Below, one piece after another: positions 8,921 to 26,425 of a stretch of DNA of 26,425 bases. A model generated the notes under the pieces. That model worked only from the letters and a program-made list of their open reading frames with translations, searched no databases and was not told the DNA's origin. Origin of the DNA: a virus (lineage: Duplodnaviria; Caudoviricetes); IMG/VR virus record IMGVR_UViG_3300033555_000020, positions 1 to 26,425 of that record; one strand, written 5' to 3'. Made by a program: the position numbers and the translations under genes. The number at the start of each line of letters is the position of its first letter. The stretch's first letter is position 1.

Positions 8921-9262
8921 GTGACGACAGCAGCGACCGAGCCGGTGGCGGAAGCCCCGGAGCAGGCCGTGGTTACGCCGCGCCGAAACTCCAACGTCGA
9001 CGAGATGCGGGTGAGCGGAAGCTCGAACCCGCAGTCGCTGGCGTCGGCCATCAGCCACGCGGTGTACGACAACCGGACCGTGACGCTTCGCGCCATCGGT
9101 GCGGGTGCCATCTGCCAGGCCATGAAGGCGCTCGCCATCGCGCGCGGCTTCGTCGCCCCGCGGGGGTTCGACATCGCGGTCATCCCAGGCTGGGCCAACG
9201 TCACGGGCAGCCGCGGCGACGAACTCAGCGCAATGACCTTCCGCGTGATCCAGCTCGGCTGA
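8921..9262 (+). CDS. spoVS: SpoVS family protein (Alba-like fold)
   Basis: MRVSGSSNPQSLASAI...LRAIGAGAICQAMKALAIARGFVAPRG...IP...SAMTF closely follows the SpoVS consensus; RBS AGGAG. Confidence 0.9.
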   Translation: MTTAATEPVAEAPEQAVVTPRRNSNVDEMRVSGSSNPQSLASAISHAVYDNRTVTLRAIGAGAICQAMKALAIARGFVAPRGFDIAVIPGWANVTGSRGDELSAMTFRVIQLG

Positions 9263-13735: not shown

Positions 13736-14080
13736 TTGAAGAACGACCAGATCGCGCGCGTGTGTCATGAGGCCAACCGCGCACTCCAGATCATCCAGAA
13801 CGACCCGAGCATCTCGGCCGGCGAGCCGTGGTTGGACCTTGACCTCGAGACGCGGGACAGCGTCATCCAGGGAGTCGCGGGCGTGCGGCAGGGCAACACC
13901 CCCGCGCAGAGCCACGAGAACTGGGTCCGCTTCAAGATGACGCACGGTTGGACGCTTGGGCCGGTCAAGGACGAGAAGCTGAAGCAGCACCCGTTGCTGG
14001 TGCCGTTCGACCAGCTTCCCGAGAGCCAGCGCATCAAGGATGACCTGTTCGTCGCCATCGCCACGGCCCTGCTGCAGTGA
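13736..14080 (+). CDS. RyR (ryanodine receptor) repeat domain protein
   Basis: IARVCHEANR...SHENW...GWTLGPVKDEKLKQHPLLVPFDQLPESQRIKD. Confidence 0.85.
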   Translation: MKNDQIARVCHEANRALQIIQNDPSISAGEPWLDLDLETRDSVIQGVAGVRQGNTPAQSHENWVRFKMTHGWTLGPVKDEKLKQHPLLVPFDQLPESQRIKDDLFVAIATALLQ

Positions 14081-14808: not shown

Positions 14809-15104
14809 TGCGCGGGAACCGCGGGACGCAGCTGGTGCTGCCAGGGATGGAGAACGTAGGGGCCGAGCATGTCCGCGTTCTGGCCGCCCCTGAGCCTGAG
14901 CTAGTGCAGCACCCGCAGCACTATGGCGGGGACACGGTCTACGAGGTCATCAAGGTGCTCCGCGCCTGGGGCTTGAACGGGGACGCGTTGCTCTGGAACG
15001 TCGTCAAGTACATCGCCCGTGCCGGCAAGAAGGGCGACGCCCTCACCGACCTGAAGAAGGCGCGCTTCTACCTCGACGAGCGCATCAAGGAGCTGGAGAG
15101 CTGA
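14808..15104 (+). CDS. DUF3310 protein (T7 gp1.7-like, putative nucleotide kinase)
   Basis: VQHPQHY...NVVKYIARAGKKG...DLKKARFYL. Confidence 0.85.
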   Translation: MRGNRGTQLVLPGMENVGAEHVRVLAAPEPELVQHPQHYGGDTVYEVIKVLRAWGLNGDALLWNVVKYIARAGKKGDALTDLKKARFYLDERIKELES

Positions 15105-15463
15105 TGGCCGACTGCAACCTCGCGCCGGCCCGCGCGGACGGCTACGCGGTCGTCTGGGACCAGGGCAAGACGCGCTACGCCCACATCGTGGCGTACGAGG
15201 AGGTGCACGGCCCCGTGCCGAACGGGCTGGAGCTGGATCACCTCTGCCGCGTGCGCAACTGCCGTGAGGTCAGCCACCTTGAGGCGGTGACCGGCGACGA
15301 GAACCGAAAGCGCGCCGGCGCGGCCAAGACGCACTGCACGAACGAGCACGAGTACACGCCGGCGAACACCTACGTCCGACCGGATACGAATCGACGAGGC
15401 TGCCGGACCTGCCGCACGACGCAGGCCCAGGCCAGCAAGGACAGGAGGCTCGTTCATGCCTAG
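15104..15463 (+). CDS. HNH endonuclease
   Basis: AHIVAYE..HGPVPNGLELDHLCRVRNC...HLEAVT..EN; C-terminal THC..H...CRTC Zn module. Confidence 0.88.
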   Translation: MADCNLAPARADGYAVVWDQGKTRYAHIVAYEEVHGPVPNGLELDHLCRVRNCREVSHLEAVTGDENRKRAGAAKTHCTNEHEYTPANTYVRPDTNRRGCRTCRTTQAQASKDRRLVHA

Positions 15464-16055
15464 AGACGCTCGCGAAGAGATGCTGGCGGCTGCCCAGGCG
15501 GCTGACGAGGCCGCTGCGTCCCGCCCACTCGGGGAGCAGATGAGGTTGCTCCAGTGTTTTACTTGCAAGAGCATGGAGGAGCTGCCGGACTACCCGCCCG
15601 AGGCGAACCCGGCCAACGACGTCGCGCTGCACTACCTCGACGAGAAGCACGGCGGCCGCACCGAGCAGCCTCACCACCGCACGCTGATGCGCGTGGAGAA
15701 GCGGGTCTGGGAAGACCGCAAGGCGCGCCGGCAGATCGTCGAGCAGGCGTGGACCGAGGAGAAGGGCTTCAAGCCCTCCTACTACGACATCAAGAACACG
15801 CTGCAGGACGACGCGGTGAAATGCCACGTCGCGCACCGCCGGCAGGTGCCTTGCATCGACTGGCGGAACGCCAGCAAGCGCCTGACCAGCCCCACCACAC
15901 GGGACCGCGAGAAGCTCGCCCGTGAGCTTCCGCGCTCCTTCGGAGGAGACCGGGAGCGGATCGCCAAGGGCGCGCCCACCCAGTTCCTTTGTGATTATTG
16001 TCCAGTAGCTGTTGCTGTGGAGTACGCCAAGCGCAAGGCGTTGGGGGAGGCGTAG
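15456..16055 (+). CDS. Cys/His-rich hypothetical protein
   Basis: CFTC, H...H, CH..H..P..C and LCDYC motifs. Alternative start at ATG 15540 with a GGGGAG RBS. Confidence 0.8.
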   Translation: MPRDAREEMLAAAQAADEAAASRPLGEQMRLLQCFTCKSMEELPDYPPEANPANDVALHYLDEKHGGRTEQPHHRTLMRVEKRVWEDRKARRQIVEQAWTEEKGFKPSYYDIKNTLQDDAVKCHVAHRRQVPCIDWRNASKRLTSPTTRDREKLARELPRSFGGDRERIAKGAPTQFLCDYCPVAVAVEYAKRKALGEA

Positions 16056-16480
16056 TGGGTCGACCAGCAGGAACCGGCATCCCGGCCGCCGACCGCTTCT
16101 GGCCGAAGGTCGAGAAGCAGGGAGGCGACGGCTGCTGGCTCTGGACAGCCGGCAAGGCCAGGGGCTACGGGCGGTTCTGCGTCGGCGTCGGCAAGGTCGT
16201 GCAGGCGCACGCCTGGTCCTACGAGCAGGCTCGCGGTCCGGTGCCCAAGGGCAAGGTGCTTGACCACACCTGCGAGCAGAAGTCGTGCGTGCGGCCCGAC
16301 CACTGCGTCCCCATGACCATCGGCCAGAACGTGGCCTGGCACTTCGTCCAGCAGACCCACTGCACGAACGGGCACAGCCTCGCTGATGCCCTTGAACATC
16401 ACGGCCGGCGCGAGTGCCGGACGTGCAACCGGGACCGGTGCAGAGTGCGCCGTCAACAGAAGGAGCTGCAGAAAGCATGA
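16055..16480 (+). CDS. HNH endonuclease
   Basis: RFWPKVEK..GCWLWT...YGRF...AHAWSYE...LDHTC..KSCVRPDH...N; THCTNGH...CRTC. Confidence 0.88.
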   Translation: MGRPAGTGIPAADRFWPKVEKQGGDGCWLWTAGKARGYGRFCVGVGKVVQAHAWSYEQARGPVPKGKVLDHTCEQKSCVRPDHCVPMTIGQNVAWHFVQQTHCTNGHSLADALEHHGRRECRTCNRDRCRVRRQQKELQKA

Positions 16481-17094: not shown

Positions 17095-17463
17095 ATGGCA
17101 GGCATCAGCAAGGCCGACCGCGAGGCTCTCGCCGAGGTCAAGAGCAAGTTCGACAGCGTCAAGCTCGACGAGAGCAGCGCCGCGGTCGCCGACACCATCC
17201 GCAAGAGCTTCGCGAAGCTCGCCGTCGACGTGCACCGCGCGTGCCCGGACGGCCGGAACAAGTCGCTGGCGATGACGCACCTCGAGGACGCCGGCATGCG
17301 CGCCATCCGGGCGCTCAGCCACGACACGAAGAGCGAGGCCGAGGTCGAGGTCGTCGAGACGTCGGTCAAGGTCAAGGTCGATGAGTCCCCGGAGGTCGTC
17401 GTCAAGGAGACGAAGACCCGCAAGCCCCGGAGCCGGCGCTCGAAGGAGACCGTCGACGCCTAG
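17095..17463 (+). CDS. Acb2/Tad1-like helical hairpin protein (putative nucleotide-signal sponge)
   Basis: IRKSFAKLAVDVHRACPDGRNKSLAMTHLEDAGMRAIRAL resembles the P.gR..slA.T.le...M.a..ai hairpin of this family. Confidence 0.6.
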   Translation: MAGISKADREALAEVKSKFDSVKLDESSAAVADTIRKSFAKLAVDVHRACPDGRNKSLAMTHLEDAGMRAIRALSHDTKSEAEVEVVETSVKVKVDESPEVVVKETKTRKPRSRRSKETVDA

Positions 17464-22133: not shown

Positions 22134-23630
22134 TTGACCACGATCTACCACCTCGGTGGTGAGCAGGCCGGCTGGCGCACCATGCTCGCCGACAACGGCA
22201 TCGAGAACGTCGGGATGAGCTACTGGTCCTGGCGCAAGCGGCTCCCGCGGCGCGGGGTCGACATCGCCAGCTACGGCTTCACCGGCGTGCTGCTGGAGAG
22301 CGGCGGCTACCAGGCGAACAACCTGCCGGCCGACAAGCAGCTCAGCCAGCGCGAGTGGCGGGAGTACGGCGACGAGTACGCCGACTTCGTGCTCGAGCAC
22401 CTCGACGACCTGACGATGTTCACCGAGTTCGACTGCCTGGCGCTCGGGCCGGCGTACGTCGCCGAGCAGCGCCGGCAGGTCTGGAGCCAGGTCGACCCCG
22501 ACAAGTTCCTGCCGGTCTGGCACCCGCAGCAGGGGCTGCAGGCCCTCGAGGAGCTGGGCGAGCAGTACCCCCGCATCGCCATCAGCGAGGCCGCCATCAC
22601 CGGGCAGGGGCTCAACGTCACGCCGCAGCTCAACGCGCTCGCGCGCAAGGGCGTGAAGCTGCACGGCATCGCCATGACCAAGCCGACCGTGCTGCGCCAG
22701 GTCGCCTTCAGCACCGCCGCGTCCACCAGTTGGCTCAGCCCGATGCGCTTCGGCGACACGCTGGTCTGGGACAACGGCCAGCTCGTCCGCTACCCGATGA
22801 AGATGAAGCAGCAGGCCCGGATGCGACACCAGGCGCTGTTCGAGCGCGAGGGCTTCGACGTGCAGAAGCTGCTCGAAGACGACAAGGACGAGGTCACCCG
22901 GCTGTCCCTGTGGGCCTGGAGGCAGCAGGAACAGGCCCTGAAGCAGCTTCGTAGCAACAACGAGGTCGACGCCGTGGAGCGGCCGCAGACGACAACGACG
23001 GCTCTGGCAGTTGTAACGCAGGGCGATGACGACGGGAAGCCTGAGGTGGTCCGTCCCGCCCTCCACGAGCGCACCACAGACGAGCTTCGAACCCTGCCCA
23101 TGTTCGGTTCCAGGACCGTCAAGGCGATGAACCAGGAGAGCCGCGAGGTCGAGGACATCGAGGTGCTCGAGGTCCGCGGCACGAGCGCGCGGCGCTGCGA
23201 CACCTGCGTCATCAAGGACCGCTGCCCCGAGTTCAAGCCCGCCACGACCTGCGCCTACAGCATCCCCACGAGCGTGAAGACCAAGGAGCAGCGGGCTGCG
23301 TTCCTCACCGGCATGATCGAGCTGCAAGCGCAGCGCGTGCAGTTCATGACGCTCGTCGAGCAGGTCAACGGCGGCTACCCGGACCCGAACCTGAGCCAGG
23401 AGTACGACCGCATGCTGAAGGCCATCCAGGTGCAGGCCGACCTGGAGGACAACCGCGACTTCCTCAAGATCAGCGTCGAGGCCCGCGGCAAGACGGGAGC
23501 GCTCAGCCGGCTGTTCGGCAGCGCGCCGGCACCTCGAGACCTGCAGCAGGGACAGCAGCTCGACCAGTCCGGTGTCGACGTCGTCGCGCAGCGCATTCTC
23601 GAGGGAAAGCCGGTCACCAGCCGCCGTTAG
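22134..23630 (+). CDS. TGT/DpdA-like TIM-barrel protein fused to a Cys4 plus helical C-terminal domain
   Basis: LLESGGYQ (cf. TGT DSGGYQ), Y.DF, EFD, FLPVWH, KLHG, STAASTSW...RFG; C-terminal C-x2-C-x5-C-x8-C. TTG start with GGGGAG RBS. Confidence 0.7.
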   Translation: MTTIYHLGGEQAGWRTMLADNGIENVGMSYWSWRKRLPRRGVDIASYGFTGVLLESGGYQANNLPADKQLSQREWREYGDEYADFVLEHLDDLTMFTEFDCLALGPAYVAEQRRQVWSQVDPDKFLPVWHPQQGLQALEELGEQYPRIAISEAAITGQGLNVTPQLNALARKGVKLHGIAMTKPTVLRQVAFSTAASTSWLSPMRFGDTLVWDNGQLVRYPMKMKQQARMRHQALFEREGFDVQKLLEDDKDEVTRLSLWAWRQQEQALKQLRSNNEVDAVERPQTTTTALAVVTQGDDDGKPEVVRPALHERTTDELRTLPMFGSRTVKAMNQESREVEDIEVLEVRGTSARRCDTCVIKDRCPEFKPATTCAYSIPTSVKTKEQRAAFLTGMIELQAQRVQFMTLVEQVNGGYPDPNLSQEYDRMLKAIQVQADLEDNRDFLKISVEARGKTGALSRLFGSAPAPRDLQQGQQLDQSGVDVVAQRILEGKPVTSRR

Positions 23631-23636
23631 GAGTTA

Positions 23637-23837
23637 CTACGAAACGCGTCGGGACCGCGGTTTCGTACGTGTCCGTGCCGGCGGCACCGCGGCGACGTCG
23701 CGGAGCAGGCGCTCGACGAGGATGTGGTGGGCACCGCAGTGCGGTCGGCTGCGCCCGTCACGGCCCTCGATGAGCATCATCCCGTCGCGCAGATCGCACT
23801 CTGGCCAGCTGCAGCGCCGGCGGGACTGGGGCTTCAC
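23637..23837 (-). CDS. Small Zn-finger-like protein
   Basis: CSWPEC...CGAH; GTGA overlap with the upstream minus gene. Confidence 0.55.
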   Translation of the reverse strand: MKPQSRRRCSWPECDLRDGMMLIEGRDGRSRPHCGAHHILVERLLRDVAAVPPARTRTKPRSRRVS

Positions 23838-23905
23838 GACAGGGCGAAGAGGATGAAGGCGGCCAGCACCAGGCCGAGCAGGACGAGCAGCAGGAGCGCG
23901 GTCAC
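23834..23905 (-). CDS. 23-aa membrane peptide
   Basis: MTALLLLVLLGLVLAAFILFALS; GTGA overlaps at both ends. Confidence 0.55.
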   Translation of the reverse strand: MTALLLLVLLGLVLAAFILFALS

Positions 23906-24249
23906 TCCTCGGCCTGGTGCTGGAAGTGCCCGCAGGGCCAGGCGACCGAGACCATCCCGGTGTTCTCGGACTCGGGGGCGGGGTCGACACCGACCTGCAG
24001 CGTCTGGATCGGCTCGCGGCACACCACGCAGATCGGGGATCCCGCGAGCGCGAGGTGCTCGGGGTGCTGGGCGTAGTGCTCGCTGGCCGCCGCCACGCCG
24101 ATGCCCAGGAGGGGCATGAACATCCCGATCACCTCGGGCGAGTCGTCGCCGGGCCAGGACCGCTCGGTCTCCATGAACGTCATCTTGAGGATCGTCAGGG
24201 CCTTCGCGCGGACGGTCTCGAAGATGTCCATCGGGGTGGGGTCGGGCAT
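23902..24249 (-). CDS. Hypothetical protein with Zn-binding motif
   Basis: CVVC...PCGH; coupled to its neighbours. Confidence 0.7.
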   Translation of the reverse strand: MPDPTPMDIFETVRAKALTILKMTFMETERSWPGDDSPEVIGMFMPLLGIGVAAASEHYAQHPEHLALAGSPICVVCREPIQTLQVGVDPAPESENTGMVSVAWPCGHFQHQAEE

Positions 24250-24593
24250 CAGAAGTCTCCAGTGGGGGTCAGCGGCTCAGGGTTGCGGTCGAGGTCGCCG
24301 GGCTTGAACCAGACGGGGTTGGGCTGCTTGCTGCCGGCGGGCCGGCCGAACAGCGACGCGTACAGCTCGTCGACGGCCAGGCGCACAGCGACGCGACCGC
24401 GCGGGTACTCCTCGTCGGGCTCGTCGACGACGCTGACGACCGTGCCGAGGCGGCCGGCGAAGCGGGCGTCCTGCACGTCCTCGTGCACCTGGACTCGGCG
24501 GCCCTTGCGGAAGCGGACGTTGAGCGGGGCTGGCTTCCCGCGCCCGGTCCTGACGGGCACCGCGGGAGCGCGGCGTCGTACGACGGTCATCAT
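24249..24593 (-). CDS. SH3/KOW-like beta-barrel protein
   Basis: FRKGRRVQV...AGRLGTVV..V...VAVRL...WFKPGDL; GGAG RBS. Confidence 0.65.
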   Translation of the reverse strand: MMTVVRRRAPAVPVRTGRGKPAPLNVRFRKGRRVQVHEDVQDARFAGRLGTVVSVVDEPDEEYPRGRVAVRLAVDELYASLFGRPAGSKQPNPVWFKPGDLDRNPEPLTPTGDF

Positions 24594-24630
24594 GTTGCTC
24601 CAGTGATCGTGCTCCGAGTGAGGCCGAATC

Positions 24631-24795
24631 CTAGACCGACAGGGAGCGCCAGGTCCGCAGGCAACGCCGGCATGTCAGCGTGCGGGCAGAGACGAAGGTC
24701 GGGAAGCTGTGGTTCAGCACCAGGCAGGTCGGCTCGAGCAGCAACCGGTGCACCAGGCTGCGCCTCGGTGCGGGAGCTACCAGCGGGACGGTCAC
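24631..24795 (-). CDS. Small hypothetical protein
   Basis: C...H...CRRC; GTGA overlap with the upstream HNH-like gene. Confidence 0.5.
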   Translation of the reverse strand: MTVPLVAPAPRRSLVHRLLLEPTCLVLNHSFPTFVSARTLTCRRCLRTWRSLSV

Positions 24796-25100
24796 CGCCC
24801 GGCCATCGCGTCGGTGAACCAGTTCTCGGCCGTGACCGCGAGCTGCTTGGCGCGGGCCGGGACCGGCATGAGCGGCCTCTTGCGCTCGCCGAGCAGCCAG
24901 TACAGCCAGGCGTGGACGCTGTCGTGGCAGGTGCCGCACAGCCAGATCAGCTCCGGGAGGCGGATCCCGCCGAAGGCGCGGTTCTGCAGGTACACCGGGT
25001 AGACGTGGTGCCCCTGGGTGATGACCGGGACGCTGGAGCCGTGGTCGCGGTACAGCGCGCACGGCTTGTCGAGGGAGCTGGCGGTGGTGGGCTGGGTCAT
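24792..25100 (-). CDS. HNH-like nuclease (short, Zn-type)
   Basis: GHHVYP...GG...LIWLCGTCHDSVH. Confidence 0.7.
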   Translation of the reverse strand: MTQPTTASSLDKPCALYRDHGSSVPVITQGHHVYPVYLQNRAFGGIRLPELIWLCGTCHDSVHAWLYWLLGERKRPLMPVPARAKQLAVTAENWFTDAMAGR

Positions 25101-25152
25101 GCGCCCATCGTTGTGCTCGCAGGCTGCTGCAGCGCTGAGACGAGCTTGGCCT

Positions 25153-25350
25153 CTACAGCTCCTCGACCACGAAGTACTTGACCAGCTCGAGGGCGGGCGG
25201 GGACAACGTGAAGCTCTGCACCGAGCCGTTGGGCATGACTGCGCTGCAGGACACCTCCAGCTCTCCAGGTTCGACACCGACGTACTCGCACGCCTCGAGC
25301 ACCAGTGCGTGCAGCACCGGGCCGAGCTTCACAAGCTGCTGCGGCGTCAC
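25153..25350 (-). CDS. Small hypothetical protein
   Basis: GTG 25350 overlaps the TGA of the upstream ORF; GC3-rich. Confidence 0.5.
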   Translation of the reverse strand: MTPQQLVKLGPVLHALVLEACEYVGVEPGELEVSCSAVMPNGSVQSFTLSPPALELVKYFVVEEL

Positions 25351-25520
25351 GGGAACAGCAACCGCTCGAGCGCGGTGTACGGGTGGCCGTTCACGCAGAC
25401 CAGCTTCACCAGCAAGCTGCCGGCGGGGAGGTTTCCGCACGAGCAGTTCGGCGCGCAGAGAGCCTGCTGCCACGGAGCCATCTGCTGGTAGTCGTGCCAG
25501 CTGACGAGAAGTCGATGCAT
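25347..25520 (-). CDS. Small Cys-rich hypothetical protein
   Basis: CSCG...CVNGH; start position uncertain. Confidence 0.4.
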   Translation of the reverse strand: MHRLLVSWHDYQQMAPWQQALCAPNCSCGNLPAGSLLVKLVCVNGHPYTALERLLFP

Positions 25521-25716
25521 GCCCACCACTGTGCACCACGCGGCAAGACCTCCTAGAGGAGCACCAGTTCCGGGCCGAGGCCGAACAGCCGTCCTGCTGA
25601 CACGTAGACACCAGCCACTGCTCAGCACGCACTCCACGCACACGCATCACGTTCACATACACACACCTAAATACCTTGCATTACCTATTCGCACGCTCGC
25701 TAGTACCAACACGTAG

Positions 25717-25763
25717 GCGCATTCCTCACCTTTCACGTACTAGCTCACAGCGCATTCCTCACC
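25717..25763. repeat. 14-bp direct repeat GCGCATTCCTCACC x2
   Basis: Exact copies at 25717-25730 and 25750-25763 (33-bp period). Confidence 0.8.
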
Positions 25764-25995
25764 CCAGCCGGGCCTGTCCCACTCGCGCACACGCTCCCAG
25801 CAGCACAGTGGCGAGCACACATGTAAATCCCTGTCAATACGATTGTGCGCGTGCACAGCTGCACATTGTAAATGCAGAGTATTCACGTCTCTGCATGGAT
25901 ATTCAGGGGTTTTATGGCCTCTGGTCCCACATGCTGGGACGATAACGGCTGCATATTATGCACAAGCCTCTGACCTGCAGGTATGCGCTCAGAAC

Positions 25996-26023
25996 CCGCC
26001 CGATAACGGTGATTATGTCAACT
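25996..26023 (+). other. dif-like XerC/XerD recombination site
   Basis: CCGCCCGATAA-CGGTGA-TTATGTCAACT: 11-6-11 architecture. The right arm is close to E. coli XerD TTATGTTAAAT and to actinobacterial TTATGTCAAGT. Confidence 0.8.
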
Positions 26024-26425
26024 CACCCCTGCAGCGACGTCCGCACGGCCAGCTCGGCCTCGAGCTTGACACGCACATTGTTGCGTGCTAGCTAAATGCA
26101 CACAATAAATGGACCCCCCTCCCTTAGTGCATTCGGGCACTCAGGCCGGCCCGGTAACTCGGATACCTGGCGACATCGGGGACAGGGCAGTGGCGAAAAA
26201 TGGCGGGGATGCCGCGAGGGGCAGTGGCGCAGTGGCAGCATCTGTGCGTCCGCAGGCATGCGGCATGAGCACTAATCACATGGGTTTGCGTGTATCGGGG
26301 GATCGCGTGCACTGCGTGCACGGGCAGCCGAGAAGACGCTTCCGCGTCCAGTCGGCATCGGCATGGGCGCGGGAAACCTCGAGCATTAGTCGGTCTTCGG
26401 CAGAGGGGTGCGCGGGGTGTGGGGG

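Follow-up and report, generated by a model that had tools for sequence, protein, structure and literature searches.

A putative XerC/XerD site of actinobacterial dif type near the predicted genome end of a BRock-like phage

Introduction

The Cre/loxP system of phage P1 is built on a simple tyrosine-recombinase site in terminally repeated DNA, at which recombination can in principle circularise the incoming genome and resolve dimers. The phage locus analysed here is alike in that it presents a simple site of tyrosine-recombinase type in DNA that is predicted to be terminally repeated. It differs from Cre/loxP in that the site belongs to a 28-bp, dif-type class, the proposed recombinases are those of the host, the redundancy is a fixed short repeat rather than headful redundancy, and none of the five relatives examined encodes ParA.

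The chromosomal counterpart is the dif/XerC-XerD/FtsK system of Actinomycetota, whose sites were compiled by Kono et al. (2011). With the sites in the portion of PMC3025954 used here, our locus has in common an 11-6-11 layout, the bases CCGATAA on the inner side of the left arm, the right arm TTATGTCAACT, a non-coding setting and a single copy in the record. Unlike chromosomal dif, it lies on a phage, has a non-host spacer, stands at a predicted genome end and is predicted to be present in two copies per linear DNA. The compiled actinobacterial sites are themselves predictions, none of them experimentally confirmed in the phylum according to that portion of PMC3025954.

Phages with dif-like sites are already known as IMEXs, which use them as attachment sites. 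In CTX-phi, VGJ-phi, TLC-phi and the gonococcal genetic island, as in our locus, a dif-like site for host XerCD is borne by the mobile element (excerpts of PMC5357621 and PMC9226527). IMEX sites share homology with host dif on the XerC side of the spacer and come to lie at prophage junctions (excerpts of PMC5357621), whereas the site of the relatives described below stays internal and their complete carriers have serine integrases. Xer-like resolvases are likewise known, from tailed phages that persist as circular plasmid prophages and whose XerCD-related enzymes are believed to resolve dimers (passages of PMC8026635). In this they resemble three of the relatives with a symmetric site described below (G856, G1254 and G1256). 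The plasmid prophages have partition systems, and the passages of PMC8026635 that describe them map no site; the complete members of the window's class, by contrast, have no such enzyme.

The best cultured matches to our phage, at 37–39% in DNA polymerase I, are the Streptomyces phages LuckySocke, Alone3, GiJojo, pSt2308 and BRock. They share with the family of the window the gene order, an end motif and a short direct terminal repeat, but their repeats are without a dif-like site. BRock has been described as virulent and without recombination genes (PMC7453282). A search of the full-text literature, judged by titles and the beginnings of abstracts and with subscription journals mostly uncovered, returned no description of dif sites in the terminal repeats of tailed phages. 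Here we describe a single family in which a symmetric site with a phage enzyme, an asymmetric site without one, and no site at all occur in the same slot.

Results

The window and its phage

The DNA analysed here, 26,425 nt in length (the window), is the whole of IMG/VR record IMGVR_UViG_3300033555_000020. The record is 27% complete and represents the right arm of a BRock-like (Borockvirus-related) actinophage genome. Thirteen of its 30 proteins match BRock, nearly all collinearly, and 20 match G001, a complete 108-kb record whose gene order is nearer to the window than that of BRock and whose polymerase is 65% identical. Replication-arm gene order and proteins thus indicate that the window belongs to the BRock-like myoviruses, with the structural genes placed outside it, and they uphold the view of the preliminary description that this is a large tailed phage. 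The window encodes DNA polymerase I, a RecA/UvsX-like protein, two Holliday-junction resolvases and an exonuclease, together with a SpoVS-like protein, an endolysin, ThyX and a DpdA/TGT-like protein. Neither a tyrosine recombinase (PF00589) nor a large serine recombinase (PF07508) was found in the window, itself 27% of the genome; the preliminary description, too, had seen no integrase there.

Several of these genes merit a brief mention. The DpdA-like protein, which served us as a family marker, has a C-terminal Cys-rich domain and is kept throughout the family, and no other deazaguanine-pathway gene was recognised in the window; the protein is also encoded, as P0001, on a 101,626-bp contig, and close relatives (P0002–P0023) are 66–83% identical. 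The SpoVS-like 'sporulation protein' (8921–9262, +; PHROG 35646) is present in most relatives compared. A 114-aa protein just upstream of thyX (13736–14080, +) contains a RyR domain above the Pfam cut-off, and a 122-aa protein (17095–17463, +) contains an Acb2/Tad1 hairpin domain, also above the cut-off, making it a candidate signal sponge against CBASS or Thoeris. A conserved 199-aa gene lies between two HNH endonuclease genes that are related to each other (PHROG 826; 15104–15463 and 15998–16480, +).

A 28-mer with the layout of dif

Near the right end of the window, at 25996–26023 (+), stands the 28-mer CCGCCCGATAA-CGGTGA-TTATGTCAACT. As in a dif-type site, two 11-bp arms show partial dyad symmetry about a 6-bp spacer. 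The exact 11-6-11 layout that had been claimed is confirmed, and the pattern ATAA-N6-TTAT occurs nowhere else in the window. By chance the pattern is rare: it was absent from 300 first-order resamples of window length, and 0.0017 occurrences are expected per 926-nt end region. The site is asymmetric, with 4 of 11 positions palindromic. Table 1 lists the features of the locus.

Table 1. Features of the site and its surroundings, in window coordinates
Feature	Position	Strand	Remarks
DpdA/TGT-like gene	22134..23630	+	Synteny anchor and family tree marker; context, not part of the site
Gene-poor end region	25540..26425		Flanked by small genes running leftward and, in relative G001, by genes running rightward
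Predicted direct terminal repeat	25810..26153		Right end from the 27-nt rule; left end at 25810–25957 if the repeat is 344–197 bp long
Second look-alike of the site, 10-nt spacer	25940..25963	+	May be a decayed copy, or the origin of the left arm
Left (XerC-type) arm, 11 bp	25996..26006	+	Inner 7 bases (CCGATAA) equal the actinobacterial consensus; position 4 unusual; 6.4 bits
Spacer CGGTGA, 6 bp	26007..26012	+	Unlike host spacers; final A, shared with most sites of hosts and relatives
Right (XerD-type) arm, 11 bp	26013..26023	+	Identical to several predicted chromosomal dif arms; 16.7 bits
Family genome-end motif (C-run or G-run, then CCYTTA)	26114..26126	+	Cultured relatives have their physical right end 27 nt after it

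The surroundings are gene-poor, with a G+C content of 49–65% across 25501–26300 compared with 68% for the whole contig. No tRNA genes were found around the 28-mer, no Rfam matches within 23600–26425 and no sigma-70 promoter matches within 25500–26425; reading the right arm as a promoter -35 box was rejected for want of a matching -10. Near the 28-mer there is neither a KOPS-like skew nor a GGGNAGGG motif. A 14-bp direct repeat, its copies 33 nt apart, lies at 25717–25763, and one strain variant is without the intervening 33 nt.

The end region is homologous to G001 on both flanks of the 28-mer, and contigs from three other ice-metagenome runs span the 28-mer unchanged, with 6, 1 and 7 differences nearby. 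These strain variants are too close to reveal selection on the 28-mer. They cross it without a joint or loose end and, together with the G001 homology on both flanks, argue that the site is neither a prophage junction nor a chimera with host DNA.

Fit to actinobacterial dif

We scored the site against a matrix of 24 sites from Actinomycetes genomes that had been chosen by a 10-base core alone, so that those 10 bases are fixed in it. From 30 core loci, four in multi-hit genomes and two in unpublished genomes had been excluded. A matrix built from exact matches to a pattern derived from the site itself was circular; it was not relied on and gave way to the core-selected one. The arms of the 28-mer score 23.1 bits, at the low end of the range of real dif sites (21.9–35.0 bits for 23 of the 24 training sites, 10.4 for the other), and the next-best site in the window scores 1.9 bits. 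Among shuffles of the 453-nt end region, none of 1500 reached 23.1 bits when 2-, 3- or 4-mers were kept, and 2 of 1500 did when 5-mers were kept. Of 61 Actinomycetes genomes, 56 contain the core itself, GATAA-N6-TTATG, mostly as a single copy, compared with 5 of 61 for a reversed control; this tally includes three unpublished genomes, the loci of which were not used. The preliminary description had put forward the likeness to actinobacterial dif arms and had proposed matrix scoring as a check; the likeness holds, and the score lies above background.

Published predictions agree with the matrix. Among 30 of the 66 actinobacterial rows of Kono et al. (2011, Table S1, PMC3025954), two organisms, Acidothermus cellulolyticus and Mycobacterium gilvum, have a predicted dif with the same right arm, TTATGTCAACT; the left arm comes nearest to the predicted dif of Catenulispora acidiphila in sharing 9/11 bases with it. 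For the spacer and end-region comparison we used 23 core-selected sites, the outlier L552 being excluded as well; three of these 23 have the identical right arm. The spacer CGGTGA is unlike any bacterial one compared, with at least two mismatches to all 120 pattern-selected sites and at least three to all 23 core-selected sites. We rejected the identification of the site as a chromosomal dif on the grounds of this difference from 143 of 143 bacterial sites and of phage DNA on both sides. Rather, the sequence points to a putative XerC/XerD site of actinobacterial type, its likeness exceeding chance.

Position relative to the predicted genome end

Short direct terminal repeats are a feature of the cultured relatives, measuring 221 bp in BRock (PMC7453282), 344 bp in LuckySocke and 197 bp in both GiJojo and Alone3. 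Four of four cultured relatives end 27 nt past the same motif, a C-run followed by CCTTTA. The motif also occurs in the window and in the end regions of many relatives (L531–L543; the ends of NC_048650.1, OR725497.1, PP725410.1 and OR725492.1), and was not found in G002, G847, G859, G860, G845 and G887 within the sequence parts examined. In the window it follows the 28-mer by 90 nt. Because the 28-mer precedes by this distance a motif lying 27 nt from the end in all four cultured relatives, we predict that it falls inside the direct terminal repeat. It would span 130–158 nt inside the predicted end, within even the shortest (197-bp) repeat, and each linear virion DNA would thus carry two directly repeated copies about 100 kb apart. 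This location is a prediction: the bases past 26153 differ from the TAG of the cultured phages, no left-end signature was found, and the ends of the G1254 record show no overlap. The predicted terminal-repeat context is the key point that the preliminary description lacked.

Occurrence in relatives

We surveyed the end regions of 27 relatives with the same matrix. Three reach at least 15 bits, namely G866 (AACGCCGGTAA-GTACGA-TTATGTCAACC, 24.2 bits), G857 (CACGCTGATAA-TGGATA-TTATGACAGGC, 17.2 bits) and the G425 prophage (TGTGCTGATAA-GGTTCA-TTATGTTCGAT, 15.5 bits), and the remaining 24 score at most 3.1 bits. All three had been picked as relatives before their sites were known; the end region of G856, which was located via its own site, scores 2.4 bits. 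When all 27 end regions were shuffled, a mean of 0.01–0.05 regions reached that score, and never two of them in any of the 300 sets made for each of three word sizes. In seven G+C-rich relatives, 685 kb in total, only these three sites reach 12 bits; each precedes the end motif by 85–152 nt and has the strand orientation of the window site. Four lower-G+C records hold three sites of at least 12 bits, none of them terminal. Over the whole records of relatives the exact core is not enriched (3/50, control 3/50).

The check for conservation in related phages, proposed in the preliminary description, therefore has a divided outcome. The site recurs in the same slot and orientation in 3 of 27 end regions, but the other 24 lack it, among them that of G001, the closest complete relative and sister of the window. 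Conservation throughout the family is rejected, and the site is an accessory element. Trees built from the DpdA-like protein place G425, G857, G866 and the window on separate branches, with non-carriers interleaved (G653 was excluded from the second tree, and G805 gave no sequence). The trees suggest between two and four independent gains or losses, with weak branch support among G425, G857 and G866.

None of five Streptomyces phages has the site in its end regions, nor does the G601 prophage, and none of four Streptomycetales genomes holding the marker gene has a good dif. This absence is as expected if the site is kept only where host XerCD/dif exists; the correlation between site and host is thin.

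Wider scans added little. Sites resembling the 28-mer fall within a ribonucleotide-reductase-like reading frame in G003 and G005 and within the capsid gene locus in G851; all were set aside as chance. The 120 viral loci with a 14-base pattern included no family member and only stray shared genes, and a scan with the downstream motif returned only G001 among 13 loci. Four further records (G843, G848, G841 and G844; loci L538, L539, L541 and L542) are without a dif-like site and have a palindrome of TTGACA-N6-TGTCAA type 30–45 nt before the end motif; they share a separate family of 360–400-aa tyrosine recombinases, and the palindrome may represent divergent promoters or another recombinase site.

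Symmetric sites and recombinase genes

A scan of viral contigs for ATAA-N6-TTAT at a distance of 81–141 nt ahead of the end motif returned 30 loci, of which five are G+C-rich; being selected by pattern, they do not bear on enrichment. Four of the five G+C-rich loci have the family capsid gene, and each of the five contains ATAA-N6-TTAT exactly once. The major capsid gene matches in two to four pieces in G1253 (C1, 20191–22007), G1256 (C1, 38920–40739) and G1254 (C1, 91231–92494), which suggests introns.

The symmetric form GATAA-N6-TTATC stands 113–124 nt before the motif in G1252, G1254 and G1256, and G856 has it in roughly the same position. Xer-like recombinases of 270–300 aa are encoded by G856, G1254 and G1256; the two Xer-like recombinases tested are nearest to XerC/XerD models, at scores far below the cut-offs. 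The pairing is imperfect, with no tyrosine recombinase found in G1252 despite its symmetric site, and G842 encoding a 299-aa Xer-like protein without an ATAA-N6-TTAT site. A weaker asymmetric site, of 10.6 bits, occurs in G1253, and the site of G1255 is ambiguous. Two of the asymmetric carriers are complete, namely G866 and G846 (the latter being the G425 prophage); they show no PF00589 or PF02899 match, and each carries a large serine recombinase. The final A of the spacer is present in eight of nine sites compared, and in G866 too.

Prophages and the plasmid-like stage

Prophage hunts in five sets gave 0/301, 1/401, 4/401, 0/5 and 0/301 positives, and whole prophages only in G425 and G601. 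In both, a complete BRock-like prophage of 100-kb class resides in an actinobacterial chromosome (G425, contig C1, about 829–932 kb; G601, contig C2, about 640–750 kb). The G425 prophage occupies ~100 kb, begins with a serine integrase and holds its site internally, and the host dif of G425 is on another contig (C4). Three tRNA genes and an Lsr2-like gene adjoin its end region. The site is internal in provirus G1256 as well. No phage-host junction at the site was present in the contigs of four runs.

The preliminary description had also raised a plasmid-like stage. This idea finds no support, a ParA-type ATPase (PF13614) being absent from all five complete site-bearing relatives.

Discussion

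We propose that host XerC and XerD would bind both terminal-repeat copies and carry out strand exchange between them. The injected linear genome would in this way be circularised with a single repeat left, or replication multimers would be reduced to unit circles. The identical spacers of the phage copies would let them pair with each other, and the non-host spacer would pair poorly with host dif, so self-recombination would be favoured over integration. In temperate relatives, the resulting circle may be the substrate for their own serine integrase. That host XerC/XerD recombine the directly repeated phage copies, making the 28-mer a lox-like self-recombination site, is the reading we prefer, and we hold it with moderate confidence. 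Against it stands the weakness of the left arm (6.4 bits). The same slot holds a symmetric site in relatives, most of them with their own Xer-like gene, which suggests a Cre/lox-type module that may be served by a phage enzyme or by that of the host. We advance only tentatively, as a possibility, the broader proposal that the server of one family slot switches, the slot holding a symmetric site with a phage Xer-like enzyme, a host-type site without an enzyme, or nothing where Streptomyces hosts lack dif.

Other readings have to be weighed against self-recombination by host XerC/XerD. XerC/XerD, or a dimeric phage protein, might bind the site without productive recombination, for end protection, positioning or regulation, or to divert host Xer as a decoy. 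In 10 genomes the slot keeps its place with respect to the end motif while spacers vary freely, G1252 has the symmetric form without a tyrosine recombinase, and no XerD activator is known here; when acting at dif XerD requires FtsK, and TLC-phi needs an activator of its own (excerpts of PMC9226527). On the other hand, the 11-6-11 spacing is kept in every case, the spacers are oriented, as their final A attests, and two carriers share 10–11 of 11 host XerD-arm bases, a mimicry needless for a phage repressor site. We consider binding alone unlikely. The site might also be a functionless chance assembly of motifs that recur in end regions, such as GATAA repeats and TTGACA -35 boxes on the other strand. 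The concern is real, for half-motifs are frequent there: G036 has the right-arm tail and flanks of the window without the left arm, the G425 end region has six GATAA copies, GATAA and TGTCAA words recur in these regions, and in G601 a sequence resembling the right arm lies 470 nt ahead of the end motif. The second copy with a 10-nt spacer, the lack of genome-wide core enrichment and the choice of the window site out of a very large scan fit the same account. It has to contend with the rarity of the window score even in 5-mer-keeping shuffles, with three carriers among 27 regions where shuffled sets never gave two, and with the finding that no ATAA/TTAT spacing other than N6 is enriched in end regions, so we regard pure chance as quite improbable.

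We think it equally improbable that the target belongs to a recombinase encoded in the remaining 73% of the phage genome rather than to host XerCD. G856, the second-nearest relative, does combine a symmetric site in the slot with its own Xer-like gene, but the window site is asymmetric with a perfect host XerD arm, and both complete asymmetric carriers are without such a gene. As for integration at host dif through XerCD, the IMEX-like use that the preliminary description had suggested, the arms are canonical, and the spacer with which VGJ-phi integrates is divergent on the XerD side (excerpts of PMC5357621). The three spacer bases on the XerC side are shared with 1 of 120 and none of 23 bacterial sites, though the phage's own host may have a matching spacer. 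Two findings make integration at dif unlikely: the complete carriers encode a serine integrase and lack a tyrosine recombinase, and in the proviruses the site is internal. The suggested search for host contigs with the element at dif pointed the same way: the host dif of G425 is on a different contig from its prophage, and the four runs yielded no junction. With phage-type DNA on both sides and a spacer differing from all those compared, we rate an IMEX-type attachment site as very unlikely.

Circle closure or multimer resolution by phages with short terminal repeats is often assumed rather than demonstrated. The G425 carrier, a prophage in a bacterial genome assembly, may make the idea testable by induction, and the phage sites would be natural substrates for a first biochemical test of actinobacterial XerC/XerD. 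The end motif can place genome ends in uncultured members of the family, for which viral contigs hold about 2,100 capsid-gene stretches. If host XerCD acts here, Xer hijacking would not be confined to the integration of small phages but would take in the end-joining of tailed phages of 100 kb, and the question would arise how XerD gets activated away from the division septum. If the server of the slot does switch, tailed phages would hijack the chromosome-dimer resolvase of the host to circularise, a single family would display the evolutionary hand-over, and presence of the site would indicate a host whose chromosome is circular.
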